Source: Candidatus Methanogaster sp. (GTDB taxonomy: Archaea > Halobacteriota > Methanosarcinia > Methanosarcinales > Methanogasteraceae). Taken from it: a stretch of DNA of 56,010 nucleotides. The stretch covers positions 12,194-68,203 of the forward strand of contig PQXF01000009.1 of assembly GCA_003194445.1 (NCBI GenBank). Direction: 5' to 3'. The translations under genes and the position numbers were made by a program. This document shows, piece by piece, positions 35,815 through 50,715 of the stretch. Every line of letters starts with the position of its first letter. Within the stretch, counting starts at the first letter, position 1. The notes under the pieces are model-generated. The model saw only the letters and a list, made by a program, of their open reading frames with translations, was not told where the DNA came from and searched no databases.

Positions 35815-36654
35815 TCATACAACGATCTCGATGCCATACACCTGCTCAGGGTTCTCCTTGTGCACCTTCCAGAAAACCTCCTCACCGAACTTATCGACCA
35901 ACTGCAAGGTTCTCCGGGGCACGGTCTTTGGCCCAAGCACCGCGCCGGGTCTCTCGGGGTCGTCGATGTAATCGGTCTCCATCATGAACCTGCTTCCCTC
36001 GATAAGCGCGCTCTCGATCGCGCCCTTGCCTGCAAGCACCCCCGGAAAGAGCCCTTCGCGTTCAAAAACATGTATCAGCGGCGGAGCATAATGCTTGACC
36101 ACCTTTCCGGGCGAAATCCCGGATCTCTTCGCAATCGCGGTAAGATCCGCGATCACTGCCGCGTCCGCAGTCTCGGTGTGGAGTTGCACAGCGCATCCGG
36201 CGTCACGCGCGAGAGTCATGCCGTAAGCCATGATGCGGTTGGACGCATCCCACGCGCTTCCAGAGACCTCGTAATGCGGTCTTCCGGTCTTGATGGCTAT
36301 CGCCTCATTCTCACAAACGAAACGTTGTGCGATCTCGAGCCCGGCAATCATCAACTCCTCTGCCCGCGTCTGCCCCACGCGGTCGGATAGCACCGTGATC
36401 TCGGCGGGATGGACGCCAAGCACAGGAAACGCGGTAACTCCAATATCAGACCGGTTCACCTCACGCGCGATACTGATCGTCTCTTCGAAGACCGGTTCGT
36501 AGTCACTTGGCTTTGTTATCGCAATACCAAGTGTCCATGATGGCTTTGATACAAGGATGATGTGTGTGCCACCCGCGCGGGCAAACTCCTTGACCGCCAT
36601 GAGTCCCTTTCCCCGGCGATCGAGATGGATATGATTGTCAGTTATCGGGATCAT
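35815..36654 (-). CDS. tatD: TatD-related metallohydrolase (archaeal)
   Basis: DNHIH, GVHPAE, GRPHY, QLHTE, KHYA, METDY.DDP.RPGAVLGPKTVP. Confidence 0.9.
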   Translation of the reverse strand: MIPITDNHIHLDRRGKGLMAVKEFARAGGTHIILVSKPSWTLGIAITKPSDYEPVFEETISIAREVNRSDIGVTAFPVLGVHPAEITVLSDRVGQTRAEELMIAGLEIAQRFVCENEAIAIKTGRPHYEVSGSAWDASNRIMAYGMTLARDAGCAVQLHTETADAAVIADLTAIAKRSGISPGKVVKHYAPPLIHVFEREGLFPGVLAGKGAIESALIEGSRFMMETDYIDDPERPGAVLGPKTVPRRTLQLVDKFGEEVFWKVHKENPEQVYGIEIVV

Positions 36655-36664
36655 GGATCAGAAA

Positions 36665-37228
36665 TCATAACAATCCAAGTTCATCGAGATCATTTACAAT
36701 TTTGATGACGACAAGTTTCGAGTCTTCCGGAGTTTTGCATCCTGTGATAATCATTTTACCAGATCCAAATAGCAACACGACCGATTTCGGCTCTTTAATC
36801 CGGTAAACAAGTCCCGGAAACTGCTCTGGCTCGTATTCAATGTTTTCGAACCCAAGACCCATCGAAACGGCATCGAGATTGATCACGCATCCAAGGTCGG
36901 CAGATGAAACGATATTGTGTAGAACAAGTTCGGTCTGTCCCTCTGTACTGGTCCCGATCTCTTCAAGTTTCTCAAATATCTTTGTTACCCCGATCTTTAC
37001 ATCTGAGATCTTCTTTGCACCCGTACACACGATCTTCCCGCTTCCGAAGACAAGAACCGCAAGCTTTGGCTCTTTGAGGCGATAGATCGCTCCGGGAAAT
37101 CTCTTTTTGTTGTATTCAGCTCCCTCTATCAACTGTGACACGCGTTCGAGATCGATGGTGCTTGTTATCGAGGTGGACGCAACCACATTCTCGATTTTGA
37201 TCGTTTTTGGGATATTTTCAAGGGACAT
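36665..37228 (-). CDS. tbp: TATA-box binding protein
   Basis: IENVVAS, FPG.IYR..EPK...LVFGSGK.VCTGAK; second repeat YEPEQFPGLVYR. Confidence 0.97.
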   Translation of the reverse strand: MSLENIPKTIKIENVVASTSITSTIDLERVSQLIEGAEYNKKRFPGAIYRLKEPKLAVLVFGSGKIVCTGAKKISDVKIGVTKIFEKLEEIGTSTEGQTELVLHNIVSSADLGCVINLDAVSMGLGFENIEYEPEQFPGLVYRIKEPKSVVLLFGSGKMIITGCKTPEDSKLVVIKIVNDLDELGLL

Positions 37229-37403
37229 ATAGCAACCTTCGGCACAATATTTCAGTGGAGATGGTATTAGTTGTATGAATTGATATATTAACCTTACTGA
37301 AAATGGAATGGGGCTGTCAACCACTACCGCACTGCCACACCAATAAGGTTTTAAATCATTACACCAACGATCATCTCAACCCTATTAGATAACAGGAGGA
37401 TAA

Positions 37404-38390
<987 letters not shown>

Positions 38391-38395
38391 GTGAT

Positions 38396-39439
38396 TTGCC
38401 GCCAAAGATTGTAGAGGTCATCGAGAATGGCGTCTGCGCGGCTTGCGGGGCATGTGAAGCAACATGCCCCTTAAACGCCGTTCACGTAGAGTCTGAGGCA
38501 GATGTGCCTGAAGATGAGGCTCGTCCCCCAAGCGCAAGCAGACGCGATCCGAATAATCTAACTTACTATATTCACGGCGCAGCATGTGAGGTCTGTGAGG
38601 ACTGTCTGACCTGTTCAAGGGTTTGTCCTGTCGTGGACGGATTCCCTGAGGATGAGTTTGACAACGTCCGAAGCTTCAGGGGAGGAAAGAGTGAGCTAGA
38701 GGGGCAGGACGGTGCTGTCGTGTCAGCAATTCTCAAATCCTTATTCGAGCAGGGTGAGATCGACTGTGCTGTCGGTATCAAGCGGGACGACGACTGGAAT
38801 ATCGAGCCATTCATGCTGACGAAGGCGTCAGATGTTGATTTATCAAAGGGCACGAAGTACAGTTCAGCGCCGGTTCTTGCGCAGCTCAAGGAGGCTATGA
38901 CTAAGTACGAGAAGATCGCAGTTGTTGGAGTACCGTGTCAGGCACACGGCGCAGCACTCATGCGCGAGAACATGACCGACCGAATCGTGCTTGTGGTGGG
39001 CATTCTCTGCATGGAGAGCTTCACAAGCGAGGTGCTCCGCGAAAACATCATCCCTGATATCATGGGCCTCAATCTCAAGGAAGTCGTGAAGATGGACTTC
39101 GGAGGAGGTAAGTTCTGGGCATTCACCAAGAACGGTGATAATGGTGATGAGCCTGAACCTCATAATGTTGCGATCAAGGAAGTCGCACCGCTTGCACGAA
39201 CACCGTGCCACCACTGTCTAGATTACACAGCCTACTATGCGGATATCTCGGTCGGATCGGTAGGCGCGCCAGATGGATGGAACTCGGTCATCGTCAGAAC
39301 CGAGGCCGGAGAGAAGTACTTAAACAAAGTGAAAGGCATCGAATACATGGATGACCCGAAGCCAGGGATGTTCCTTATAAAGAAACTTGCAGACCAGAAG
39401 CACAAGAATAATGCGCCAAAGGAAGGAGAAGCGCATTAG
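38396..39439 (+). CDS. fpoF: F420H2 dehydrogenase subunit F (FrhB family with N-terminal ferredoxin motifs)
   Basis: [53 protein letters not shown]; downstream of mer. Confidence 0.9.
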
Positions 39440-39947
39440 CCGTGCTTTTTATATCGGGCGCTTTCAGCCATACCACATAGGACATCATACTGTCCTTGAA
39501 AGCATCGCCGGCGAGGCTGACGAAATTATCGTCGGGATCGGCAGTGCACAGCGTAGTCATGAGATAGAGAATCCGTTTACCGCAGGCGAGCGTGTAGTTA
39601 TGGTCTCACGTTCGCTGAAAGATTTAGATATTGATTGTTACGTAATTCCGATCGAAGATATACAGCGAAATGCAGTCTGGGTCTCTCATGTGAGATCCAT
39701 GACCCCCTATTTTGATCTCGCGTACACCAACAACCCGCTTGTTTTCCGGTTGTTCGAGGAGGCAGGAGTTCAGGTCAAGCGTTCTCCAATGCACCAGCGG
39801 GATCTCTATTCCGGAACCCTTATACGAAAAAAGATGCTCTCTGGCGAGGATTGGGAGCATCTCGTACCTGATGCTGTGGCAGAGACGATTGATGATATCA
39901 GGGGGATCGAGCGGATCCGGGATATTGCACGAGATGATATAAAGTAG
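39411..39947 (+). CDS. nadM: Nicotinamide-nucleotide adenylyltransferase
   Basis: GRFQPYH.GH, GSAQ.SH...[13 protein letters not shown]; start uncertain (ATG at 39411 overlaps the fpoF end). Confidence 0.93.
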
Positions 39948-40032
39948 TATCTGAAGGAAACTTTTTAATTTGCTCTGGTCGGTTGAAAACATGATGCCAA
40001 CCCGGCAAATACAAATATGATTAGATAGGTGT

Positions 40033-40104
40033 AATCAGTGAAATCGGTGTTAATCTGTGGCTAAAACAGTATCAGCCACATATTAACGCAGATGGACACA
40101 GATT
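40033..40104. repeat. Imperfect palindromic (REP-like) element, copy A
   Basis: aatcagtgaaatcggtgttaatctgtggct-aaaacagtatc-agccacatattaacgcagatggacacagatt. Confidence 0.8.
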
Positions 40105-40261
40105 AGCGGTGTAAACGACTTTTCAGATCGATAGTTCTCCATTATGGCAGTTGTGGTTGCGTAAGACAATCCGGCGTTCCCAGAAAACAATAAAAAGACT
40201 CATCTGAAGCTTGTTTGGACGTTACTGTGACCTTTTAAACGAGGAACTATTGTCTGAAGTT

Positions 40262-41008
40262 TCATCCGGACGAGCATAGAGCATCGTGCAGCCGCACCAC
40301 ATCCCCGATCACGACGATCGCAGGAGCCTTAACCCCGCGATCCTTTGCGATACCGACGATCGTGCTTAAACTTCCTGTGGTCACCACCTGATCATCCCGT
40401 GTTCCGCGCTCGATTATCGCAACAGGCGTATCAGGGTCACTGCCATACCGCATCAATTCCGGGATGTACGTGCCAAGCGTGCTCACCCCCATCAGGATCA
40501 CGAGCGTGCCCAACGACTGCGAAAGCCATTCCCAATCGAGCATCGATCCGTCTTTCTTCTGCTCATGCCCTGTGATGATCGTTACCATCGATGCGCTATC
40601 CCTGTGCGTAATCGGGATGCCAGCATACGCGGGAACCGCTATTGCCGACGTGATGCCGGGCACCACCTCGAACTCAATCCCGGCTCTCCGAAGCTCCAGT
40701 GCTTCCTCGCCACCCCTTCCAAAGAGGTATGGGTCGCCGCCCTTCAGACGAACCACCATATTTCCCTGCGATGCGTAATCGACCAGCAACCGGTTGATCT
40801 CATCCTGTGAAAGTGTGTGGTCGCCTGCGTATTTGCCGACATCGATCAGTTCCGCGCTTTTCGGAAGCGAGTTAAGTATTTCAGGTCCGGGCAGTTGGTC
40901 GTACACGATCACGTCCGCCTCCTTGGTAAGGCGCAGCGCCTTGATCGTCAGGAGTTCGGGGTCGCCGGGACCGGAGCCGACCAGATAGACCTTCCCATTC
41001 GGATGCAT
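40262..41008 (-). CDS. cobA: Uroporphyrinogen-III C-methyltransferase
   Basis: [49 protein letters not shown]. Confidence 0.95.
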
Positions 41009-41050
41009 GGTAATCCCACTTGCATTAAGCATAATAACAGTTTCGTGAAT

Positions 41051-42224
41051 TCACGCTGTAACGGTCGGGACTCCATTCTCATCCCATCCCCGCTTTTCGT
41101 AATACATCGTAAGCGCACTCTCGAAATACTCACGATCCAACAATTCTCCTGCGTGTGGTCCGGTCTTGATCGGTGTAGTGAATGCCCGCTCGGATGGATA
41201 ATCATCCTCCCTTTTGACTCCAAGTTTTACGTTGATCGTGCGTGTGAGGTCATGGAGGTGGCTTGACAGCTCGAACATATCCCCAAGTGTTAATGAAACT
41301 CCTGTTGCCGCCGCGAATAACTCGGCATAGATATGCTCATCGGGCAGCAGAAGCAGGAGGTGTCCCCGATCTCGTATTTCAACATCGCATCGTCGTTTAT
41401 CGTATCAGCGCCATCGAAATGGGCATCGTTGAAGTTGTGGGTCGGCATCGCACCAACGGAGTTGATGTAATCGATGACCGACATCAAGCCCTGCTGCTGC
41501 CATAACTCGAAGAGATCGCGGCTCTTCAGGTAATCAAATGCCTGGTCGCCTGTGTTGACGAGCGCATCCATGTCATGAACTGGCAGATCATGCGATCCCC
41601 TTATTGCTACTGCTTTTAAGTTCTTTGAGCCAAAGATTGCACCCATGCCTGTGCGCCCGGCATTCCGGCTCCATTCAGTGTTGATACATGCGAATTTGAC
41701 GAGATTCTCTCCGGCAGGACCGATCACGGCAACCCGGGTCTCGATGTCGCCCATGTCCTCCTTGACAGCGCGCTCGGTATCGGAACTGGTCTTGTCCGCA
41801 TAAGCGGATGCACTTCTGATCTTGATATCCTCGTAATCGATGCAGATCACAGAAAGCGCGTCTGCCTTGCCCTTGATTACCAGTGCATCGTATCCCGCCT
41901 GCCGCAGTTCCACTCCCAAAAGCCCGCCCATGTTACTATCGCCGTATATGCCTGTTAGCGGCGAGATCGATATGAATGAGGTCTTGCCTGATGCCGGAAG
42001 GTACAAGCCAGAGAACGGACCCGGCGCAATCACTATAATGTTCTCGGGACCGAGCGGCTTTAGATCCGGGTGCTTCATGAGGTTGTCGAACACGATCTTC
42101 GCGCCCCAGCCCCTGCCGCCGATGTATTTCAGCGCGAACTCGTCATCAACATCGGTTACGACCGATTTGCCCTGCTCAGGTCGATATTCAATATCTTTTT
42201 TGTGTAACCGCCTTTGATCTCCAT
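41051..42224 (-). pseudogene. Aldehyde:ferredoxin oxidoreductase (tungsten AOR family), frameshifted and internally deleted
   Basis: MEIKGGYTKKILNIDLS, then a frame break to GKS...YIGGRGWGAK; SPLTG..GDSN.GG, IGPAGEN, GRTG.GA..GSKNLKA; truncated after CFCCP; C-terminal remnant REDD..SER...YYE.RGWDENG.P. Confidence 0.88.
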
Positions 42225-42358
42225 CTCGATGCCTCGTGTTTCTGTGTCACTTTATCCGTACTTGATAAAGTAAGTTATGGTTGCGTCGAACATACTTGGT
42301 CGGGTTTTGGGGCACAATCGAGAACTCCAGTGAAAACACTCTGATTTTGTGGTAACCA

Positions 42359-42455
42359 AATTCGTGTAATTCGCGTCATTCGTTGTCATTCGTGAATGCG
42401 TAGCATCGGCGCAGCAATCTCTCGGTGCTGATTTTATCACGAATGCCACGAATCG
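42359..42455. repeat. Short ATTCG/CGAAT repeat tract with an inverted partner
   Basis: aattcgtgtaattcgcgtcattcgttgtcattcgtg ... cacgaatgccacgaat. Confidence 0.55.
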
Positions 42456-42530
42456 AGTAAATCACTGGATTTTAGACAGTGTATGGTTGTGGTAAATAAG
42501 CACTGAACGTGGAAGCGATTAGATTTATGA

Positions 42531-42604
42531 AATCAGTGGAATCGATGTTAATCTGTGGCTAAAAACCCTTATCAGCCACAGATTAACGCGGATGAACACA
42601 GATT
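42531..42604. repeat. Imperfect palindromic (REP-like) element, copy B
   Basis: aatcagtggaatcgatgttaatctgtggct-aaaaacccttatc-agccacagattaacgcggatgaacacagatt, same orientation as copy A. Confidence 0.8.
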
Positions 42605-42859
42605 GGAGGTTATCTGCTCAACACGATATTTATTCAAAGGATTCTATATGGTATTTGGGCGTATTCGATCCCACCATCAAAGATTAAATGGCTTAAACGC
42701 CAGCGTCAGATTGACATCCCCAGATAGCCAAAAGATTTTATAATGAAGCGTGCCTTTTATCCACTGAGGTTTATCTTCATAGCTACAATCGCGCATGGGA
42801 GCTCCATAAGCAAAATGAATGAACCGGATGCTGGAAGAGGCAGTGCAGGAGTTTAATCA

Positions 42860-43579
42860 ATGCTGATCGAACTGCGAATACAACAACTTGCAGATAACAT
42901 CCGCAAGGATATGGACCTGCTCAACGATTACGAGGACAAACTGCGATACGAGACTGATCCGCGCCGTCTGGCAAGATATCGCACGGAGATCGAACGCCAG
43001 CACGAGTCCTTGAGCCGCTACCAGCAGGAGTACGATGAACTGCGCGGGCCGGTGACCGGCGAGCCGCCAGCAGGGATGCAGGACAGCGCAGATATGTTGC
43101 GGCAGATGGATGCCAAACTGGATGGTCTTCTGAGCGGTCTGAAAGACATACATGGCGATTTGGTGGACTTTCGCAAGACTCTGCTCGCCCGCTTCGATGA
43201 CAGCGAGCAAGTGATCGTCTCTACGGTCGTTCAGCGGCTCGATCAAAATCAATTGGCTACGGTGCGGAGCATACTGGATGAAATAGAATCCAATCGTCTT
43301 CCGGAAAACGAGCTTCAAGAGACTTTAAGCGCGGTTTTACAAGCTCTATCTGAAATTAAACAGAACGAGGCAGGATGTTACGACTCCCGACTGGTGAGCG
43401 AAGCTGCGAACCTGTCAGAGGTGGTCGATAATCCGAAACTCGATGTGAATCACAAGCTCAAGGTTTCAATCCCAATTATACCGCTCATTCTAAAATACGA
43501 AACCGAGGTCGGACTGAAGAGTGGACTGAACCTGAAAAACGCATTGCAGAGATTGAAAGCATGGCGAGGTAGGGGATGA
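42860..43579 (+). CDS. Helical protein with an N-terminal domain shared with the downstream NB-ARC protein; putative effector/adaptor
   Basis: N-terminal LLNDYED.LRYETDPRRLARYR.EIERQ; C-terminal KLKVSIPIIPLILKYE.E..L motif; ATGA overlap with the next gene. Confidence 0.8.
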   Translation: MLIELRIQQLADNIRKDMDLLNDYEDKLRYETDPRRLARYRTEIERQHESLSRYQQEYDELRGPVTGEPPAGMQDSADMLRQMDAKLDGLLSGLKDIHGDLVDFRKTLLARFDDSEQVIVSTVVQRLDQNQLATVRSILDEIESNRLPENELQETLSAVLQALSEIKQNEAGCYDSRLVSEAANLSEVVDNPKLDVNHKLKVSIPIIPLILKYETEVGLKSGLNLKNALQRLKAWRGRG

Positions 43580-45567
43580 ACGAAGACCTAATCGAAGAGC
43601 GTCTGAAAGCTCTTGAAGGCAACATCCGCGAGGATATGGCCCTGCTCAACGATTACGAGGATGAACTGCGATACGAGACTGATCCGCGCCGTCTGGCAAG
43701 ATATCGCAGGGAGATCGAACGGCAGCGCGAGTCACTCGTACAGTACCAGCAGGAGTATGGCGAACTGCAGAAGCAGGCGACACCGGCAGAGATGCGGAAC
43801 GTAACTGATCTCTTGCAGCAGCAAGACATGAAACTGGAGGATATCCGGAAATTGCTGCCGCCAGTCTGGAACGTTTCTCACCACCGCAACCCAAACTTCA
43901 CGGGTCGGGAGGACATCCTATCAGAACTCAGGTCAGCTCTCACTTCAGGAGAGCCTGCCGCGTGGAAACAGGCTCTAACCGGTATGGGCGGTGTGGGCAA
44001 GACCCAGCTTGCTGTGGAGCATATCTACCGCCATAAGCCTGATTACAGGGTCATCTGGTGGATCCGGTCTGAAGAGCCGGCTGCGATGGCTGCCGATTAT
44101 GCCAGTCTTGCCGCCAGTCTGGATCTGCCAGAGAAAGACTCCATCGACCAAACAGAGATGGTCAGGGCTGTAAAGCGTTGGCTTGAGCATAATTCGGACT
44201 GGCTGCTCATCTTTGATAACGCGAATTACCAGAGAGCGATCCGCGACTACATCCCGCTGGGAGGGGCAGGTCATGTGATTATCACCTCCAGAAACCCGGA
44301 CTGGGGCAGTGTAGCCGGACTGCTTCCGGTTAAGAAATTTGATCGAGCCGACTCGATTAAGTTCCTCTGCAAGCGTACCGGGCAGGATGATCTGGATGCT
44401 GCTGATGCGCTCGCAGGCGAACTTGGCGACCTGCCTCTGGCTCTCGAGCAGGCAGGATCCTACATCAAGGCGACAGGAACCGCGCTTACGGATTATCAGG
44501 AACTCTTCCAGTCCCGGCGGAAGGAGCTATGGGGGGACGAATCTCCTCCGCCGGACTACCCGGACTCGGCTGCTACCACATGGTCTCTTGCAATGGATGA
44601 CGTCAGGGAAGAATCCGAGGAAGCCGCGGATCTGCTGAACCTCTGCGCGTTTTTGGCTCCGGACGAGATCCCTCTTGATATGTTGGGCGAGGGGGCAGAA
44701 CAGATCCCCGAGCCGCTTGCATCGACATCATCCGACAGACTGGCTATGAATCGAGCGATACGGGTACTCGGGCGGTACTCCTTGATCGATGCAAGTGACG
44801 AATCCCTCTCAGTCCATAGACTGGTTCAAGCAGTGGTGCGGGACCGTTTGGGTGAAGACGATGGAGATGGGTGGGCAGAGACTGCTGTGAACCTCTTGAG
44901 TGCAGTTTTTCCCTACGATAGTGATGACGTGCGGACATGGCACCGGTGCGAATGTCTACTGCCTCACACTATGGCGGCGGCTGCCCACACCGAAGCACGA
45001 GAGGTGGCACCAGAAGAAACAGCGTATATCTTGAATCAAACAGGCTCGTATTTGTGGGGACGCGCTGAGTTTGCCGAGGCTAAATCTCACCTTGAACGGG
45101 CTTTGGTTCTTGCTGAAAAAGCGTATGGAAGAGACCATCCAAGCGTAGCCATCCGCGTCAACAACCTCGGCAGAGTCCTGCAAGACCTTGGTAACCTCCC
45201 CGCGGCAAAGGAGTGCTTTGAGCGTGCGCTTGCGATCGATGAAGAGGTCTACGGAAGTGACCATCCAAACGTAGCCATCCGCGTCAACAACCTCGGCAGC
45301 GTCCTGCGAGCTCTTGGTGACCTCCCCGCGGCAAAGGAGTGCTATGAGCGTGCGCTTGCGATCGATGAAGAGGTCTACGGAAGAGACCATCCAAATGTAG
45401 CCATCCGCGTCAACAACCTCGGCAGCGTCCTGCAAGATCTTGGTGACCTCCCCGCGGCAAAGGAACACTATGAGCGTGCGCTTGAGATATTCCGGAGGTT
45501 TCTCGGAGAGGATCATCCATCCACAGTAACGGTGCGAAACAATCTCGAGTCGCTTGCAGACGTTTGA
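43576..45567 (+). CDS. NLR-like STAND protein: shared N-terminal domain, NB-ARC NTPase, winged helix, TPR repeats
   Basis: RNPNFTGRE, Walker A GMGGVGKT, WLLIFDNA, IITSR, GDLPLALEQAG, VHRLVQ, 42-aa TPRs. Confidence 0.93.
   Translation: MNEDLIEERLKALEGNIREDMALLNDYEDELRYETDPRRLARYRREIERQRESLVQYQQEYGELQKQATPAEMRNVTDLLQQQDMKLEDIRKLLPPVWNVSHHRNPNFTGREDILSELRSALTSGEPAAWKQALTGMGGVGKTQLAVEHIYRHKPDYRVIWWIRSEEPAAMAADYASLAASLDLPEKDSIDQTEMVRAVKRWLEHNSDWLLIFDNANYQRAIRDYIPLGGAGHVIITSRNPDWGSVAGLLPVKKFDRADSIKFLCKRTGQDDLDAADALAGELGDLPLALEQAGSYIKATGTALTDYQELFQSRRKELWGDESPPPDYPDSAATTWSLAMDDVREESEEAADLLNLCAFLAPDEIPLDMLGEGAEQIPEPLASTSSDRLAMNRAIRVLGRYSLIDASDESLSVHRLVQAVVRDRLGEDDGDGWAETAVNLLSAVFPYDSDDVRTWHRCECLLPHTMAAAAHTEAREVAPEETAYILNQTGSYLWGRAEFAEAKSHLERALVLAEKAYGRDHPSVAIRVNNLGRVLQDLGNLPAAKECFERALAIDEEVYGSDHPNVAIRVNNLGSVLRALGDLPAAKECYERALAIDEEVYGRDHPNVAIRVNNLGSVLQDLGDLPAAKEHYERALEIFRRFLGEDHPSTVTVRNNLESLADV
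45133..45519 (+). repeat. 126-bp near-identical tandem repeats encoding TPRs (3 copies plus a partial)
   Basis: gaccatccaa..gtagccatccgcgtcaacaacctcggcag at 45133, 45259 and 45385. Confidence 0.95.
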
Positions 45568-45576
45568 GGACAGGCT

Positions 45577-46992
45577 CTACGAATAGACCGCCCGCCGGTA
45601 CGACCCGAGCACCTTTAACCGCGCAACCGTCCCCTCGATCGACTGCACAGCCTCATGGATCTTGCCGTCGTGGATGTGCCCCTGAAAGTCGATATAGAAG
45701 AGATAATCCCCGAGTGCCTTTCTGGTCGGGCGTGATTCGATCTTCGTGAGGTTGATATCCCGCGATGAAAACTTGCCAAGCAGTTCGTGGAGTGCGCCTG
45801 GGCGGTCCTTGTGCAGATCCACGATGATCGAGGTCTTGTCCTGCCCTGACGTTTGCGGGACTGTGGTTCCAAGCACGATAAATCTGGTATGATTCTCATC
45901 AACGTCCTGAATCTCTTCAAAAAGTATTTTAAGTCCGTATCTCAGCGCAATATCCGCGGATGCGATCGCCGCGACCCCCTCCTCGCCCGATGCAAGTTCC
46001 GCGGCGTGTGCTGTGCTTGCAGCCACCTGAATCTCTGCATCGCTAAAGTGCCTCTGCAAGAACCGCCTGCACTGCGCGGTAGCCTGTGGATGTGAGACGA
46101 TCGTCTTGATGGGCGCGGTCTCGCTCTTTACAAGCAGGGAGTGTTGTATCGGAAGGATTATCTCGCCTACGATCGTTACATTGTACTTCAGCAGCGCATC
46201 GAGCGTTGCCCCGACCGATCCCTCGAGCGAGTTCTCTACCGGAACAACTCCGAAATCTGCCCGGTTTCCAACAGAAGATGCGATCTCGCCGACGTCACTG
46301 AAGTACACAAACTCGGCAGGCTCGGTACTCCACCTCTTTGCTGCCTGTTCGCTGAATGTGCCTGCAGGTCCGAGTACCCCGATCGTTATCTTGCGGTCGC
46401 CGCGGTTTATTGCGCTGCCGACCACGACAGAGAAGAGATCTGCCATAGCTTCGGGAGGATTCTCGGTCGTGCCTACCGCGATCCGCTCATCAGGGTACGC
46501 TACATACTCGCATACCGCAACAGGGGTTGCGAATCCGTGATCCAGCAGGAACTTCGAGACCTCCTGCAGATCAAACCGCGCATCAGGAAGGACGAAGACG
46601 GTCTTGCCAAGTTCGAGTTCGGATAGAATCAGTTCCTTTGCGCGATTGATATCGCGGGCATGTGCCGTCACCGCGGCAAGCTCGGTCTGCTCGATCTTGA
46701 GTCTTGCAGCAACGACCTGCATCGATGAGATCCCGGGCACGATCGTGTCGCCCGCCTTTGCAAACCGTCCGAGGCCGGAGAGCATTGGGTCGCCTGTAGA
46801 GAGTACCGCGGCACCGTCAGGCAGTTCCGAAATCCTCTTGTAGTCCTTGATCTCATGGCAATCGCACCTGATATGATCCTTCGCAAGTTCTATCGCACGC
46901 TTCGATCCATAGACTACGGATGCATTCTCGATGGCATCCGCCGCCTCTGCGGTCAACAGATTCCTGCCTGCGCCAACGCCTACGATCTTCAT
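45577..46992 (-). CDS. Fusion of cobalt-precorrin-7 C5-methyltransferase (CbiE) and prephenate dehydratase (PheA, with ACT domain)
   Basis: N-terminal IVGVGAG...LT, LSTGDPM.SGLG, PGISS; C-terminal LGP.GTFSEQAA, PVENS.EGSV, SHPQA..QC, N.TRF, DRPG.L, NLTKIESRP. Confidence 0.92.
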   Translation of the reverse strand: MKIVGVGAGRNLLTAEAADAIENASVVYGSKRAIELAKDHIRCDCHEIKDYKRISELPDGAAVLSTGDPMLSGLGRFAKAGDTIVPGISSMQVVAARLKIEQTELAAVTAHARDINRAKELILSELELGKTVFVLPDARFDLQEVSKFLLDHGFATPVAVCEYVAYPDERIAVGTTENPPEAMADLFSVVVGSAINRGDRKITIGVLGPAGTFSEQAAKRWSTEPAEFVYFSDVGEIASSVGNRADFGVVPVENSLEGSVGATLDALLKYNVTIVGEIILPIQHSLLVKSETAPIKTIVSHPQATAQCRRFLQRHFSDAEIQVAASTAHAAELASGEEGVAAIASADIALRYGLKILFEEIQDVDENHTRFIVLGTTVPQTSGQDKTSIIVDLHKDRPGALHELLGKFSSRDINLTKIESRPTRKALGDYLFYIDFQGHIHDGKIHEAVQSIEGTVARLKVLGSYRRAVYS

Positions 46993-47269
46993 CGTGGAAA
47001 CTGTTGCGGCGAATAGTATTAACGAGTTGGGTTCATCCGGATCGAGTTGGCAGCCCCTAAACGAAAACCTTAAATATGCTGCTGCCTTATGAAATGGGTT
47101 AAATCATGAAAAGTATGATTAGAACAATGGGTTTGGTAGCTTTGACATATATAGTGATGGTGAGGCGGAAATAATTGTCTCTCTTTTTCACCCGTTGCTG
47201 TACATATCCGTGCATTCGAACACCTATGCAAGCCGGCAGCGCATCACGATTGGAGACTGAGGTGAGAAG

Positions 47270-48097
47270 ACGGATCTGATAACAGCAATAATCATACTCG
47301 CAATCACTGGCATCGCGGTCGGGCTTGCAAGCGGGCTGCTCGGCGTCGGCGGGTGTTTCATCATGGTTCCGGTGCAGTTCGGGGTATTCCAGGCGATGGG
47401 CGTTTCTCCGGATATTGCGATCCTGCTTGCGTTTGGGACGAATCTCCTTGTCGTGCTGCCAACCGTTGCAAGCAGCGCAGTGGGGCACAGCAAGAAGGGC
47501 GCGGTCTGGTGGCGGGCTGGCATCTTTCTCGGCATTGCAAGCGCTGTTGGCGCAGTGATTGGCGCTACGATTGCGGCGCATCTGTCTGTCGAGGTGCTGA
47601 CGGTTTCGTTTGGCATAGCGGTTCTTGCTGGCGCCATCAGGATGCTCACCGCGAATCCGCCAGCGATTACGGAAGAGCCGAAGGATCGCCCGCTTCTCTG
47701 GATGGCGTGCGGCTTTCCGATCGGCATCGTATCAGGTATCGTCGGGATCGGTGGCGGCGTATTGACGATTCCAGTGATGGTGCTTCTGCTCAAGTTCAGG
47801 ATGCATCTGGCAGTCGGAACATCGAATGCGATGATGATGGCAACAAGCATCGGCGGCGTTATTGGTTATGTCGTAAACGGGCTTGGAGTCGAGGGGCTGC
47901 CTGCGTACTCGATCGGATATGTGAATCTTGTGTCATGGCTTGCGCTTGCGATGACGAGCGTACCGATGGCGCAGGTCGGAGTCATGGCTGCGCACAGACT
48001 GCCTGCTAAGGAACTGAAGTACGTCTTCATCGCTGTGATGGTGTATATGGGGCTTAAGATGATCGGGGTGTTTGGGTGGCTTGGACTGCCGATATGA
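47270..48097 (+). CDS. TSUP (TauE/SafE) family permease; conserved N-terminus begins at ACG 47270
   Basis: G.ASGLLGVGG...VP, A.GT.L, SG..GIGGG....P, A.GTS; first TM helix lies upstream of the ORF-track ATG. Confidence 0.88.
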   Translation, partial: TDLITAIIILAITGIAVGLASGLLGVGGCFIMVPVQFGVFQAMGVSPDIAILLAFGTNLLVVLPTVASSAVGHSKKGAVWWRAGIFLGIASAVGAVIGATIAAHLSVEVLTVSFGIAVLAGAIRMLTANPPAITEEPKDRPLLWMACGFPIGIVSGIVGIGGGVLTIPVMVLLLKFRMHLAVGTSNAMMMATSIGGVIGYVVNGLGVEGLPAYSIGYVNLVSWLALAMTSVPMAQVGVMAAHRLPAKELKYVFIAVMVYMGLKMIGVFGWLGLPI

Positions 48098-48126
48098 GGA
48101 CTGTATGAGGGTATCAACCTGACATT

Positions 48127-48495
48127 TCAACACCGGTTCGGATGGGCGGTCACCCGGGTCCACAGAGCAACTCTTCTGCCAAGATCGGTCGGATAGTAGA
48201 TCAGGTAATTCCCTTCCTGCCGTGCGCACACGAGACCACCATCCTTGAGCACCGAGAGATGGTACGACATCTTCGAGTACGCATATCCGGTCATCGCAAC
48301 GAGAAGACAGACGCACATCGGCTGCATGAAGAGCGCAAAGAGCACCTTGACCCGCACAGGATCGGATAGCGCACGTGCAACCAAGACAATAGCCCCGATC
48401 TTCCGGTCAGCAGGCAGCGATCCCGCGATTCCAGCGATCCCGCCTTTCCCTTCCAGGTCACACCGGATCGAATCCGGTATCTCAATTGCGTCCAT
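48127..48495 (-). CDS. arsR: ArsR/SmtB family transcriptional regulator
   Basis: ALSDP.R...L..L...PMCVC.L, S..SYHL..LK..GLV....EGNY..Y; divergent from the ars genes. Confidence 0.88.
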   Translation of the reverse strand: MDAIEIPDSIRCDLEGKGGIAGIAGSLPADRKIGAIVLVARALSDPVRVKVLFALFMQPMCVCLLVAMTGYAYSKMSYHLSVLKDGGLVCARQEGNYLIYYPTDLGRRVALWTRVTAHPNRC

Positions 48496-48496
48496 G

Positions 48497-48565
48497 ATTT
48501 CAAAGCTATTTCAAAGCTATTTGAAACCACAACATTGAAGTGGTATTACAAACATTATTGAAATA
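48497..48565. promoter_or_regulatory. Putative ArsR operator region
   Basis: tttcaaagcta direct repeat, palindrome ttcaaa-gcta-tttgaa and related attacaaacattattgaaat in the divergent intergenic gap. Confidence 0.5.
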
Positions 48566-48627
48566 ATGTCAGGCACCATAAATAACGTTTGCCATTCGTG
48601 CAATCGGATTTGGGAGACCAAAGTACC

Positions 48628-49671
48628 ATGACAATCGAAACATTGCTTCTGGCTGGCATCGAAACCCTGGAAGAGTATCTTGCGCTGCATGTGCTGATGT
48701 GTCTCGTGCCCGCATTCTTCCTTGCAGGCGCCATCGCCTCGCTCTTCTCAAAGGAGTCTGTGCTGCGCTACTTCGGTGCTGATGCACCCAAATACCTCTC
48801 ATACAGCGTGGCATCGGTAAGCGGCGTGCTTCTGGCGGTCTGCTCCTGCACGGTGCTGCCGCTCTTTGCCGGAATCTACAGACGGGGTGCAGGCATCGGT
48901 CCTGCGTCGACGTTCCTGTTCTCGGCGCCCGCGATCAACCTGCTTGCAATCGTCTACACTGCGCAGATACTCGGCTTTAAGATCGGTGCTGCACGTGCGG
49001 TGGCTGCTGTCGGCATCTCAATCGTTATAGGGCTCATCATGGCTACGGTCTTCCGAAGCGAGGATAACGCGAAGAGCCGGATGATCTCGGCTGCTGGCGA
49101 GGGCGAGATCAACCCGCTGCACCAGACCGGCATCTTCATGCTTCTCCTCGCCATCCTTGTGCTCGGCGGCATCGTTGAGGCGTGGCTGTGGCGGGGTCTG
49201 ATCATCGGACCGCTGGTGCTTCTGACGGCTTATGTCTCAAGAAAGTGGTTTGATGATGAGCAGATCCACGACTGGATGTACGAGACATGGGATCTCACAA
49301 AGAAGATATTCCCGCTCTTGCTGGTGGGCGTATTCTTTGCAGGCATAATCGTTGAACTGATACCATCAGACCTTGTTGTGCGATTTGTCGGAGGAAACTC
49401 GGTACGGAGTAATCTGATCGCAGCGGTTGCCGCGGCACTGATGTACTTTGCAACACTCACAGAGGTCCCGATCATCGACTCGCTCACCCGGCTCGGAATG
49501 GGCGAGGGACCTGTGCTTGCAATGCTTCTTGCAGGACCTGCGCTATCGTTTCCGAACATGATCGTGATCAGCCGTGTGATGGGTGTCAGGAAGGCGTCAG
49601 TCTATATCACACTCACTGTAATCCTTGCTACCATAGCCGGATTCGTGGCTGGAACTACTATATGGAGATAA
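48628..49671 (+). CDS. arsP: ArsP-type (DUF318) permease
   Basis: HV..CLVPAFF.AG, LAVCSCTVLPLF, FLFSAPAIN, MYFATLTEVP, GP.LS.P. Confidence 0.88.
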   Translation: MTIETLLLAGIETLEEYLALHVLMCLVPAFFLAGAIASLFSKESVLRYFGADAPKYLSYSVASVSGVLLAVCSCTVLPLFAGIYRRGAGIGPASTFLFSAPAINLLAIVYTAQILGFKIGAARAVAAVGISIVIGLIMATVFRSEDNAKSRMISAAGEGEINPLHQTGIFMLLLAILVLGGIVEAWLWRGLIIGPLVLLTAYVSRKWFDDEQIHDWMYETWDLTKKIFPLLLVGVFFAGIIVELIPSDLVVRFVGGNSVRSNLIAAVAAALMYFATLTEVPIIDSLTRLGMGEGPVLAMLLAGPALSFPNMIVISRVMGVRKASVYITLTVILATIAGFVAGTTIWR

Positions 49672-49675
49672 GAAT

Positions 49676-49930
49676 ATGGATATAATTGTAAAGGTATTTG
49701 GATCAGATCCCCCTTGCGCCAAATGCAAGGTGGCTCATGACATCGCAAAGAAAGTTTCGGAGAAGATCGGAACGGGCGTCGTCGTTGAAAAGCACAGCGC
49801 TCTTAGTGAAGAAGGCGATAAGTACGGAATCATGATGACTCCGACTGTTGTTATCAACGATGAGATCGCGGTCGTTGGCAAGGCACCATCTGAGAAGAAA
49901 CTGGAAGAGATCATCAGATCGAAGATGTGA
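49676..49930 (+). CDS. Small thioredoxin-like protein (MTH895/ArsE family)
   Basis: PCAKC, YGIMMTP.VVIN......GK.PS. Confidence 0.85.
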   Translation: MDIIVKVFGSDPPCAKCKVAHDIAKKVSEKIGTGVVVEKHSALSEEGDKYGIMMTPTVVINDEIAVVGKAPSEKKLEEIIRSKM

Positions 49931-49956
49931 AATGAGACTGAAATTCGAGGTGAATC

Positions 49957-50715
49957 ATGAAGAATGAAAAAGAGATTAAACAATTTGTAAAGGATCGATA
50001 TGCCAGTGTTGCATCAAATGAGGGTTCTTGTTGCTCATGTTGCAACTGCGACACAGACATTGTTGAACATGCAAAATCGATGGGATATTCGGAGGCAGAA
50101 ATCAGAAATATCCCGGAAGGATCTGTGATGGGGCTTGGTTGCGGCAACCCAACCGCACTGGCAGAATTAAAAGCAGGCGAAACAGTTTTAGACCTTGGTT
50201 CTGGCGGAGGCGTGGATGTTTTTCTTGCAGCCCAAAAAGTCGGTGAGACCGGGAACGTTATCGGCGTGGATATGACGTCTGAGATGCTTGAAAAGGCAAG
50301 AGATAACGCAAAGGTGGGCAGCTACAAGAATGTTGAGTTCAGGGCAGGCGAAATAGAGAACTTACCTGTTGAGGATGATTCTATCGACGTTGTCATAAGT
50401 AATTGCGTCGTCAATCTCTCCCCGGATAAATTAGCCACCTACAGGGAAGTATTCAGGGTTTTAAAGCCGGGTGGCAGGGTTCTTATATCTGACATTGTAA
50501 CCGAAGGAGAACTCCCCGAGGATATCAGGCAGAGCTTTGACGCGTGGACAGACTGTATCGCAGGAGCTCTGGAGACGCAAGAATATCTGGACACGATTAC
50601 GAAAGCGGGTTTCCGAGATGTTACGGTCGTTGCCAAACACCCTTTTTACGAGCCTAGAATGGACGACAGACTTGCAGGGAAGATCGTTAGTATTCAATTA
50701 CGAGCATATAAATGA
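49957..50715 (+). CDS. arsM: Arsenite S-adenosylmethionine methyltransferase
   Basis: SCC.CC, GLGCGNP, LDLGSG.G.D, GVDMT.EM, SNCV.NL.PDK, W..CIAGAL. Confidence 0.93.
   Translation: MKNEKEIKQFVKDRYASVASNEGSCCSCCNCDTDIVEHAKSMGYSEAEIRNIPEGSVMGLGCGNPTALAELKAGETVLDLGSGGGVDVFLAAQKVGETGNVIGVDMTSEMLEKARDNAKVGSYKNVEFRAGEIENLPVEDDSIDVVISNCVVNLSPDKLATYREVFRVLKPGGRVLISDIVTEGELPEDIRQSFDAWTDCIAGALETQEYLDTITKAGFRDVTVVAKHPFYEPRMDDRLAGKIVSIQLRAYK

Follow-up and report, generated by a model that had tools for sequence, protein, structure and literature searches.

In the fungal HET-S/NWD2 and the bacterial BASS/Bell systems, a nucleotide-binding oligomerization domain-like receptor (NLR) shares an amyloid signalling motif with an adjacent effector, and in systems of the HET-s/BASS type this short motif is common to the C-terminus of the effector and the N-terminus of the NLR. 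The CARD-CARD contact of Apaf-1 and caspase-9 is a homotypic adaptor of the death-fold type, the death fold being a six-helix bundle. For the effector-associated domains (EADs) of multicellular prokaryotes, the consulted passages of PMC7159879 describe copies in adjacent genes as more similar to one another than to those encoded at other places. Here we analyze a gene pair of Candidatus Methanogaster sp. (assembly GCA_003194445.1, contig PQXF01000009.1) in which an NLR-like protein and its small neighbour start with the same helical hairpin. The window referred to below is the whole stretch of 56,010 nucleotides (nt) that was analyzed, and positions are counted within it. We read the pair as a two-gene, adaptor-coupled system of the STAND (signal transduction ATPases with numerous domains), i.e., NLR-like, type, and give this reading a probability of about 0.6. 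The comparisons with described systems draw on passages of PMC7159879, PMC8195603, PMC13581612, PMC10586767 and 10.1101/2024.01.29.577857.

A hairpin common to two coupled genes

Gene 1 (42860-43579; like all parts of the pair on the + strand) encodes a protein of 239 amino acids (aa) with an N-terminal domain (aa 1-62, 42860-43045), a linker and a C-terminal domain folded as a seven-helix bundle (aa 70-239, 43067-43576). Gene 2 (43576-45567) encodes a STAND/NLR-like ATPase of 663 aa, in which a homologous N-terminal domain (aa 1-65, 43576-43770) is followed by NB-ARC with DUF7779 and then by tetratricopeptide repeats (TPR). The genes overlap at ATGA, the start ATG of gene 2 lying on the stop TGA of gene 1. 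An earlier note on this DNA had claimed that the two coupled genes share an N-terminal helical segment with 41 of 49 aa identical, and both the open reading frames (ORFs) and BLASTP confirm this. The identical positions fall in aa 13-61 of gene 1 and aa 16-64 of gene 2, and the single significant BLASTP segment joins aa 2-88 to aa 5-88 (56/87 identities, 64%, E 5e-30). Over 60 core residues the two copies are 75% identical. A single family of direct repeats is seen in the DNA, with copies at 42863-43056 and 43588-43781 (194 nt, 81% identity, 725 nt spacing), the first of which contains a gene-conversion patch discussed below. The likeness of the two N-terminal domains is far above chance, and it is conserved at other loci.

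The shared domain of about 60 residues is modelled at pLDDT 84-91 as two antiparallel helices (about 62 aa), which in gene 1 span residues 2-30 and 34-62. Compared with solved structures by VIA-align, it retrieves only generic helical hairpins (Z ~10 over 60-68 residues), and the full gene 1 model in the wide VIA-align search likewise gives only generic hairpin matches, over residues 1-87. No enzyme family in Pfam matches the hairpin.

Gene 2 has the tripartite layout of STAND proteins, i.e., N-terminal domain (aa 1-65), NTPase (aa 103-430) and TPR (aa 470-663). Its nucleotide-binding module (aa ~103-430, 43882-44865) comprises Pfam NB-ARC (aa 114-298) and DUF7779 (aa 345-428). The NB-ARC match is weak (21.4 bits, cut-off 23.5), and strong Pfam matches were obtained for DUF7779 (E 6.3e-14), TPR_12 (E 8.9e-53) and TPR_10 (E 2.9e-40). 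The ATPase motifs are intact: none of 25 homologues departs from M137-T143 of the Walker A motif GMGGVGKT (aa 136-143, 43981-44004) or from D214 in the Walker B region LLIFDN, and conservation of G136 is at least 90%. The TPR region (aa ~470-663, 44983-45564) is the presumed sensor, a role assigned by analogy to other STAND proteins. No enzymatic family in Pfam matches gene 2, in agreement with its description in the earlier note as an NB-ARC and TPR protein that lacks an enzymatic effector.

The effector position can be compared within the same genome, which carries two more NB-ARC and TPR paralogues of gene 2, on contigs C95 (L097:3719-6247, - strand) and C103 (L098:185-2575), both with a TIR-like N-terminus. 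From aa 94 of gene 2 on, the C95 paralogue shares 48% identity with it, and upstream of this point it carries a domain with matches to solved TIR domains (E 2.6e-7). The N-terminus of the C103 paralogue weakly matches the TIR domain of the plant NLR Roq1 (E 0.0022). TIR and hairpin are thus alternatives on the same NB-ARC and TPR chassis, with the hairpin filling the effector slot.

In the mechanism that we propose, gene 2 would be sensor and switch at once, its TPR region presumably binding a ligand and its NB-ARC-type ATPase oligomerising. Its N-terminal effector slot would hold the 60-residue hairpin and no enzyme, and the activated, oligomerised protein would cluster its own hairpins. These might then co-assemble homotypically with the hairpins of gene 1, whereby several C-terminal domains would be gathered, and the gathered domains would either perform the output or switch it on. 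We infer this order of events, as well as the immune role and the action of the C-terminal domain, from comparative data. When aa 1-92 of gene 1 and aa 1-94 of gene 2, each with its alignment, were modelled as a complex, the prediction gave a score of 0.01 and a mark of 0.32 and is neutral on binding.

Recurrence of the pair and exchange of partners

The earlier note had proposed a test for recurrent pairing and for effector swapping. Pairing was counted in a sample of 40 loci, consisting of the window's own locus (L001), 15 loci of species-representative genomes and 24 loci of metagenomes, with domains marked by phmmer. The count was limited to stand-alone gene-1-like ORFs with at least 200 nt of downstream sequence, and L041, L045, L086, L092, L093 and L094, where the two domains do not lie in one ORF, were left out. 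A gene starting with the hairpin lies within 150 nt downstream of 29 of the 32 ORFs counted, with a 4-nt overlap in 20, although these rows are not independent, as some loci possibly come from closely related genomes. The exceptions are L074, L081 and L084, the last two being N-terminally extended forms with no downstream partner. At L074 (2039-4812), about 2.8 kb lie between the gene-1 homologue and a hairpin-NB-ARC gene, maybe as an insertion.

The same picture emerges from whole genomes. A profile of the hairpin only, built from 30 sequences, was run against 401 genomes sampled across the phylum, and six match at E <= 1e-5, the other 395 giving none. In all six there are exactly two copies, which lie about 720 nt from each other on one contig and one strand, in a short and a long ORF, and single copies occur in none of the 401 genomes. 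With the gene 1 protein as query, the pair's own genome gives two adjacent hairpin matches and no further one, and with the gene-1 family profile, two bacterial genomes give one adjacent pair each and again no further hairpin match. The outcome of the check named in the earlier note thus speaks for the pairing, both across loci and across genomes.

The swapping is also seen, with gene 1 constant and the partner varying. The commonest partner, found in most loci, is hairpin with NB-ARC and TPR. Other partners join the hairpin to NB-ARC, APAF1_C and WD40 (L038), to a KAP NTPase (L077), to an FGE-sulfatase domain (L053), and to NB-ARC, DUF7779 and KAP NTPase in a double-NTPase protein (L093); in single proteins it is fused to NACHT (P0149) and to HD-CE (P0126). 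A further form, at L043, L069 and L070, combines the hairpin with CTD10, the docking domain of ABC-3C/Lamassu effectors. In the cyanobacterial order, a gene-1 homologue is followed by hairpin-CTD10 and then by an LmuB-like ABC ATPase, and PADLOC assigns the latter two genes to its candidate system PDC-M68, as PDC-M68A (E 4e-34 to 4e-35) and the LmuB-like PDC-M68B (E ~1e-200). The gene-1 profile matches 15 of 251 sampled cyanobacterial genomes, five of them with a full-length homologue.

Two loci deserve a separate description. L093 (120-3402) has the reverse order, with the double-NTPase protein (976 aa) first and then a hairpin-starting gene cut by the contig end. In an uncultured bacterium (L045/L048, G302:C147:9616-10338), two in-frame TAG codons interrupt the gene-1 homologue and the partner gene is intact; the homologue may be a broken gene, or TAG may be read through.

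Besides adjacent genes, the module occurs in fusions. P0124 joins a gene-1-like module to NACHT/NB-ARC and TPR in one chain, and P0122 and P0149 hold hairpin, NTPase and C-terminal domain in one chain, all three being Rosetta-stone fusions. Among 66 long proteins with the gene-1 module, the additional domains are AAA_22 in nine, DUF4062 in seven, AAA_35 in six, EAD7, ATPase_2 and AAA_16 in five each, TIR_2 in three, Cap17-like_N, WD40, HEAT_2 and Response_reg in two each, and GUN4 in one. The hairpin therefore travels with the C-terminal domain even where no bridge is needed, and the module can follow true enzymatic effectors. Such fusions, with ATPase families of the STAND type, EAD7, DUF4062, TIR_2 and Cap17-like_N, tie the module or its C-terminal domain to the conflict systems of Kaur et al. 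(2020), as these are described in the consulted passages of PMC7159879. The C-terminal domain is also found at the C-terminus of proteins that lack the hairpin, namely HEAT-repeat proteins of other methanogens and an AAA_35 and EAD7 protein of an Anaerolineae genome. The HEAT-repeat proteins (480-760 aa, ending in the C-terminal domain with its PIIP motif) come from methanogens of the class (L009-L023, e.g., L012:1480-3174 on the - strand and L009:325-1944), and short stand-alone ORFs of this domain (85-166 aa) are likewise seen in other methanogen genomes of the class.

Taken together, the hairpin is best seen as a homotypic oligomerisation element common to sensor and partner. Pairing and swapping support its being a dedicated module that would couple a constant small protein to a variable, usually STAND/NLR-like, partner.

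The system is patchily distributed. Any match was found in 24 of 301 genomes of the class, and the mainly archaeal hosts of the system include ANME-2, ANME-1, Methanotrichaceae and Ca. Methanolliviera. Homologues named ANME-1 are 70-73% identical to the ANME-2c-like gene 1 protein of the window. The genes that flank the pair in the window recur at 0 of 15 other loci, the only matches being a 35%-identical paralogue of aldehyde:ferredoxin oxidoreductase (AOR) in two loci. Patchy spread, unshared flanks and the likeness to ANME-1 fit a cassette that is mobile, as defence genes usually are; beside the pair, no gene of a mobile element was seen.

The C-terminal domain and competing readings

Gene 1 matches no family in Pfam, NCBIfam or PADLOC, and it belongs to a large group of proteins. 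A word-index search found 215 homologues at E <= 0.001, and the 120 of them that are listed measure 131-277 aa (mostly ~240 aa), with 62-90% identity to gene 1. When 1.84 billion cluster representatives (clusters at 50% identity) were searched exhaustively with a profile, 929 proteins matched at E <= 0.001, of which 530 reach <= 1e-10 and 194 reach <= 1e-30; this is a better census than a word-index search for longer proteins with the C-terminal domain, whose word filter let through only 3. In a language-model atlas, the neighbours of gene 1 are clusters of unnamed proteins (229-237 aa) that come mostly from Cyanobacteriota. The source names among its close homologues include Candidatus Methanogaster sp. 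ANME-2c, ANME-2 and ANME-1, so that the host is probably an ANME-2c-like member of the Methanosarcinales. In one listed homologue, P0041 (277 aa), about 39 residues inside the C-terminal domain are duplicated in tandem; it is also the sole listed homologue with a precomputed family, PF27018.1.

The AlphaFold2 model of gene 1, made with 65 diverse sequences, is all-helical (mean pLDDT 87.7, pTM 0.65), with the hairpin, a less confident linker and helices at residues 71-109, 114-124, 129-143, 149-168, 176-189, 196-217 and 222-234. Modelled alone with 89 sequences, residues 70-239 reach pLDDT 94.1 and pTM 0.83. Foldseek against the PDB gave no match at E <= 0.001 for either model (best E for the C-terminal domain 0.22), and the wide VIA-align search with this domain gave no convincing solved relative (best Z 5.9 over 63 residues). 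The other chains retrieved, among them apolipophorin-III, a CARD-like chain and TIPE1, were discarded as relatives, their Z scores of 4.7-5.4 at high rmsd being helical-bundle noise; the CARD-like chain (Z 5.2, rmsd 5.0) is within the noise for helical models.

The C-terminal part of gene 1 contains HKLKVSIPIIPLILKYETEV, followed by a basic helix. The most conserved motif of the family is HKLKVSIPIIPLILKYETE (aa 198-216, 43451-43507), with the family consensus HKLKVSxPIIPLILxYExE. H198, K199, L200, K201, P205-L211, Y213, E214 and E216 are invariant in 17 sequences; in the 65 diverse sequences P205 is invariant, and L200, I207, P208, Y213, E214 and W229 are at least 90% conserved. The earlier note had described the hydrophobic motif and the basic helix, which are indeed present, and had proposed that this end acts as a possibly membrane-targeting effector, which is not supported. 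PIIPLIL is modelled as part of helix 196-217 inside the pLDDT 94 bundle, neither as a strand nor as a free tail, and no transmembrane segment is predicted for gene 1, the highest 19-residue Kyte-Doolittle mean being 0.87, on which ground PIIPLIL was rejected as a transmembrane segment. The buried helix might conceivably be released upon activation. Of the adaptor-coupled NLR system that had been proposed for an archaeon, the membrane-directed effector thus finds no support, and comparative data lend good support to an adaptor-type link between a constant small protein and an NLR-like sensor. With low confidence, we consider the C-terminal domain most likely a non-enzymatic executioner or assembly module.

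Several results weigh against an adaptor-coupled STAND system. No named EAD or death-like family of Pfam matches either protein at E <= 1 by hmmscan, through which the EADs other than EAD7 were compared, and hhalign, used for EAD7 only, gave a probability of 0.04 between hairpin and EAD7 alignment, i.e., the two are unrelated; the comparison with EAD and death-like profiles that the earlier note had proposed thus gave no match. In an identity matrix of the 60 residues, the own partner is the best in its row at 3 of 13 loci and the best in row and column at 2 of 13, which suggests that adjacent copies are generally not each other's closest relatives. At the archaeal loci other than L038 and L040, gene-1 hairpins are 70-98% identical to one another and mostly 53-78% identical to those of gene 2; locus-specific likeness is clear only in the distant bacterial locus L045 (60% vs at most 38%), and in the window it is raised by the gene-conversion patch. 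Because the whole module with its own hairpin is also fused directly behind NTPases, EAD7, TIR and DUF4062, the hairpin may be an integral oligomerisation part of the module and not only a bridge. By the same token, the C-terminal domain need not be the killing part, and could equally be an assembly or activation module, because the gene-1 module follows TIR, DUF4062 and Cap17-like nucleosidase domains. This domain shows neither a catalytic signature nor a transmembrane segment, and its fold matches are uninformative. In PADLOC, no model covers gene 1, and gene 2 obtains only a generic TPR match. The flanks in the window are housekeeping genes and no defence island, the seven ORFs scanned being a TP_methylase, two AOR fragments, a TP_methylase, PDT and ACT fusion, TauE, an ArsR-type HTH protein and ArsP_1. 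Homotypic binding of the hairpins, finally, is something we infer.

The RNA evidence is to be read with similar caution, as it consists of contigs from one study, DNA may be present in the libraries, and a two-gene contig is not the same as a single transcript. Of the words sampled from 42700-45700, three metatranscriptome runs of this study contain 91-94%. Over 42775-45174, and as far as 45223 in one run, their contigs match the window without a difference; they break at the homologous repeat points 42954-42968 and 43679-43693, and one contig (42954-43693) spans the junction of gene 1 and gene 2. Depth in the upstream spacer (42403-42669) is 1.4-2.2 vs 105-174 in the next bin, which is consistent with a transcription start shortly upstream of 42860. 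Runs X4-X6 contain only 0.05-0.06 of the words, and run X7 (0.05) gave only short pieces with several differences, probably from relatives.

The alternative that survives best, unlikely as we consider it, makes gene 1 a regulator. Its hairpin would cap the NLR-like hairpin as inhibitor or guard, or tune the threshold, and the output would come from the oligomerised N-terminal domain or from an unlinked factor. The pairing data fit this as well, and so does a C-terminal domain with neither enzymatic nor membrane signature; in addition, the fusions to TIR_2, DUF4062 and Cap17-like_N effectors place the module where regulatory or activation domains usually sit. However, the hairpin of gene 2 occupies the TIR slot of the paralogues, which would leave the system with no recognisable output if gene 1 were taken away. 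The C-terminal domain also occurs in cis at NTPase ends and after EAD7, which are typical effector positions according to the consulted passages of PMC7159879, and the tight co-variation with the own partner that an inhibitor should show is not seen in the identity matrix.

Somewhat less probable still is a role outside immunity, in which a regulatory TPR ATPase resembling AfsR or MalT and a coiled-coil structural protein would share a dimerisation hairpin, for instance for the organisation of cells or of the consortium in ANME aggregates. The housekeeping flanks would suit such a pair, as would the fusions to Response_reg (2/66) and GUN4 (1/66). The source annotations of some gene-1 homologues, EzrA-like or EnvC-like, point the same way, although these are coiled-coil names only. 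In one complete methanogen genome, by our own reading of the ORFs, the HEAT-repeat form of the C-terminal domain stands alone among transporter and methyltransferase genes, which also favours this role. Against it stand the patchy distribution (6/401 genomes), the unconserved context (0/15 loci) and the repeated association with TIR, DUF4062, Cap17-like_N, EAD7, HD-CE and a Lamassu-like candidate defence system.

FxSxx-COOH systems are defined by a radical-SAM maturase and FxSxx-COOH peptides. Gene 2 matches NCBIfam NF040586 (FxSxx_TPR) at 470.7 bits, far above the cut-off of 300, and could on this basis belong to such a peptide-maturation system with gene 1 as accessory protein. We regard this as very improbable, since the match covers aa 103-657, i.e., the NB-ARC and TPR chassis that the TIR-bearing paralogues also have, and the family name reflects this chassis only. 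Moreover, no radical-SAM maturase or peptide gene is found among the seven neighbouring ORFs, to which the search was confined.

The least tenable reading, that the shared segment is a functionless recent local duplication or gene conversion and gene 1 a decaying fragment, finds some support in the window, where synonymous differences between the two hairpins are only 0.27 and a stretch of about 95 nt is about 94% identical, but is refuted by a full-length gene 1 with the homologue counts given above, by recurrent pairing, by synonymous differences of 0.43-0.99 at 12 other loci (60 core codons throughout) with protein identities of 38-77%, which show an old pair, and by non-synonymous change far below synonymous change in the hairpins of gene-1 orthologues (e.g., 0.06 vs 0.28 for the closest relative). 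The same difference in synonymous divergence points to a recent gene-conversion tract lying over an old shared domain in the window. The 'near-identical' domain of the earlier note is hence real and recurrent as a domain, and its degree of identity is particular to this genome and partly due to this patch.

Returning to the adaptor-coupled system, a wider claim can be made tentatively, and we think it possible without expecting it. Hairpin and bundle may form an undescribed and widespread immune signalling and execution module, counting at least 929 clusters across archaea, cyanobacteria and other bacteria, that plugs through its homotypic hairpin into at least three unrelated chassis (STAND/NLR-like proteins, KAP NTPases and Lamassu-like SMC/ABC systems). 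The C-terminal domain would then be a new non-enzymatic executioner activated by induced proximity, as are MLKL, HeLo and plant coiled-coil domains. If the adaptor-coupled reading is true, it would add a new adaptor and a large new family of non-enzymatic partner domains to the ways in which prokaryotic NLR-like and SMC-like sensors are connected with their outputs. The archaea in question have no genetic system, which leaves their immunity within reach of comparative work and heterologous tests only. Through the homologues of bacteria and cyanobacteria, the idea can be tested in laboratory strains. Many unannotated proteins of about 235 aa also become accessible through the family.

Some features of the surroundings are given for completeness. 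The AOR gene beside the pair (41051-42093, - strand) is broken: one ORF holds AFOR_N and positions 8-76 of the AFOR_C profile, a separate ORF of 75 aa holds positions 312-376, and about 235 profile positions are missing. This gene lies just beyond a spacer of about 770 nt upstream of gene 1. On the other side (45577-46992, - strand), an ORF of 471 aa has the unusual combination of a tetrapyrrole-methylase domain (aa 3-177) with prephenate dehydratase and ACT. A tRNA scan of 36000-50000 found none, and a scan for sigma-70 promoters and terminators found no more sites than in shuffled sequence, such a scan being uninformative for an archaeon.

Comparison with known systems

With the antiviral single-chain STAND proteins Avs and bNACHT, as described in the consulted passages of PMC13581612, the system has the tripartite architecture and the C-terminal repeat sensor in common. 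Unlike in these proteins, the effector is not fused; the N-terminal slot carries an adaptor instead, and the candidate output is the upstream gene.

The likeness to Lamassu/ABC-3C (PMC10586767, in part) lies in the cyanobacterial gene-1 homologues directly upstream of PDC-M68A/B, where the hairpin stands in place of the usual N-terminal part of the LmuA-like protein. The window, in contrast, has no ABC ATPase beside the pair, whose core is formed by a STAND NTPase; the LmuB-like ATPase is seen beside the cyanobacterial homologues only. PDC-M68 does not appear in the main text of the preprint checked.

NLRs with amyloid motifs (cf. the consulted part of 10.1101/2024.11.07.622273) are also two-gene units in which the N-terminus of the NLR and a small neighbour share an element that would pass on activation. 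Here, however, both proteins begin with the element, a helical hairpin of about 60 residues and no short amyloid motif, and BLASTP finds nothing in gene 2 that corresponds to the C-terminal motif of gene 1.

Death-fold adaptors, including the bacterial death-like domains in the consulted passages of PMC8195603, resemble the proposed system in that an NTPase oligomer nucleates its partner through the same small helical domain, and one partner variant, NB-ARC with APAF1_C and WD40, recalls Apaf-1 itself. They differ in fold, as the shared domain here is modelled as a two-helix hairpin and matches no death-like family.

The closest parallel is the coupling by EADs (PMC7159879, as far as consulted). 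Differences exist, as the hairpin lies outside the EAD families of Pfam, hhalign shows no relation to EAD7, a helical bundle of 170 residues with no known fold or enzyme signature serves as constant partner, adjacent copies seem generally not to be closest relatives, and the system is found here mainly in archaea. In the literature searched, neither the hairpin nor the PIIPLIL bundle was found described, and supplementary domain lists may bear on this novelty. Both types nevertheless place a small, all-alpha, non-enzymatic domain on the terminus of a core NTPase and on the product of an adjacent gene, and both have variable partners, associations of the TIR or caspase type and hosts that live in aggregates; one relative even has EAD7 directly before the C-terminal domain. 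With two domains that match neither a described family nor a solved fold, the arrangement still fits the known EAD principle. If true, the logic of placing the same domain on sensor and partner, as in animal death domains, fungal amyloid motifs and bacterial EADs, would extend to uncultured methane-oxidising archaea living in tight consortia.

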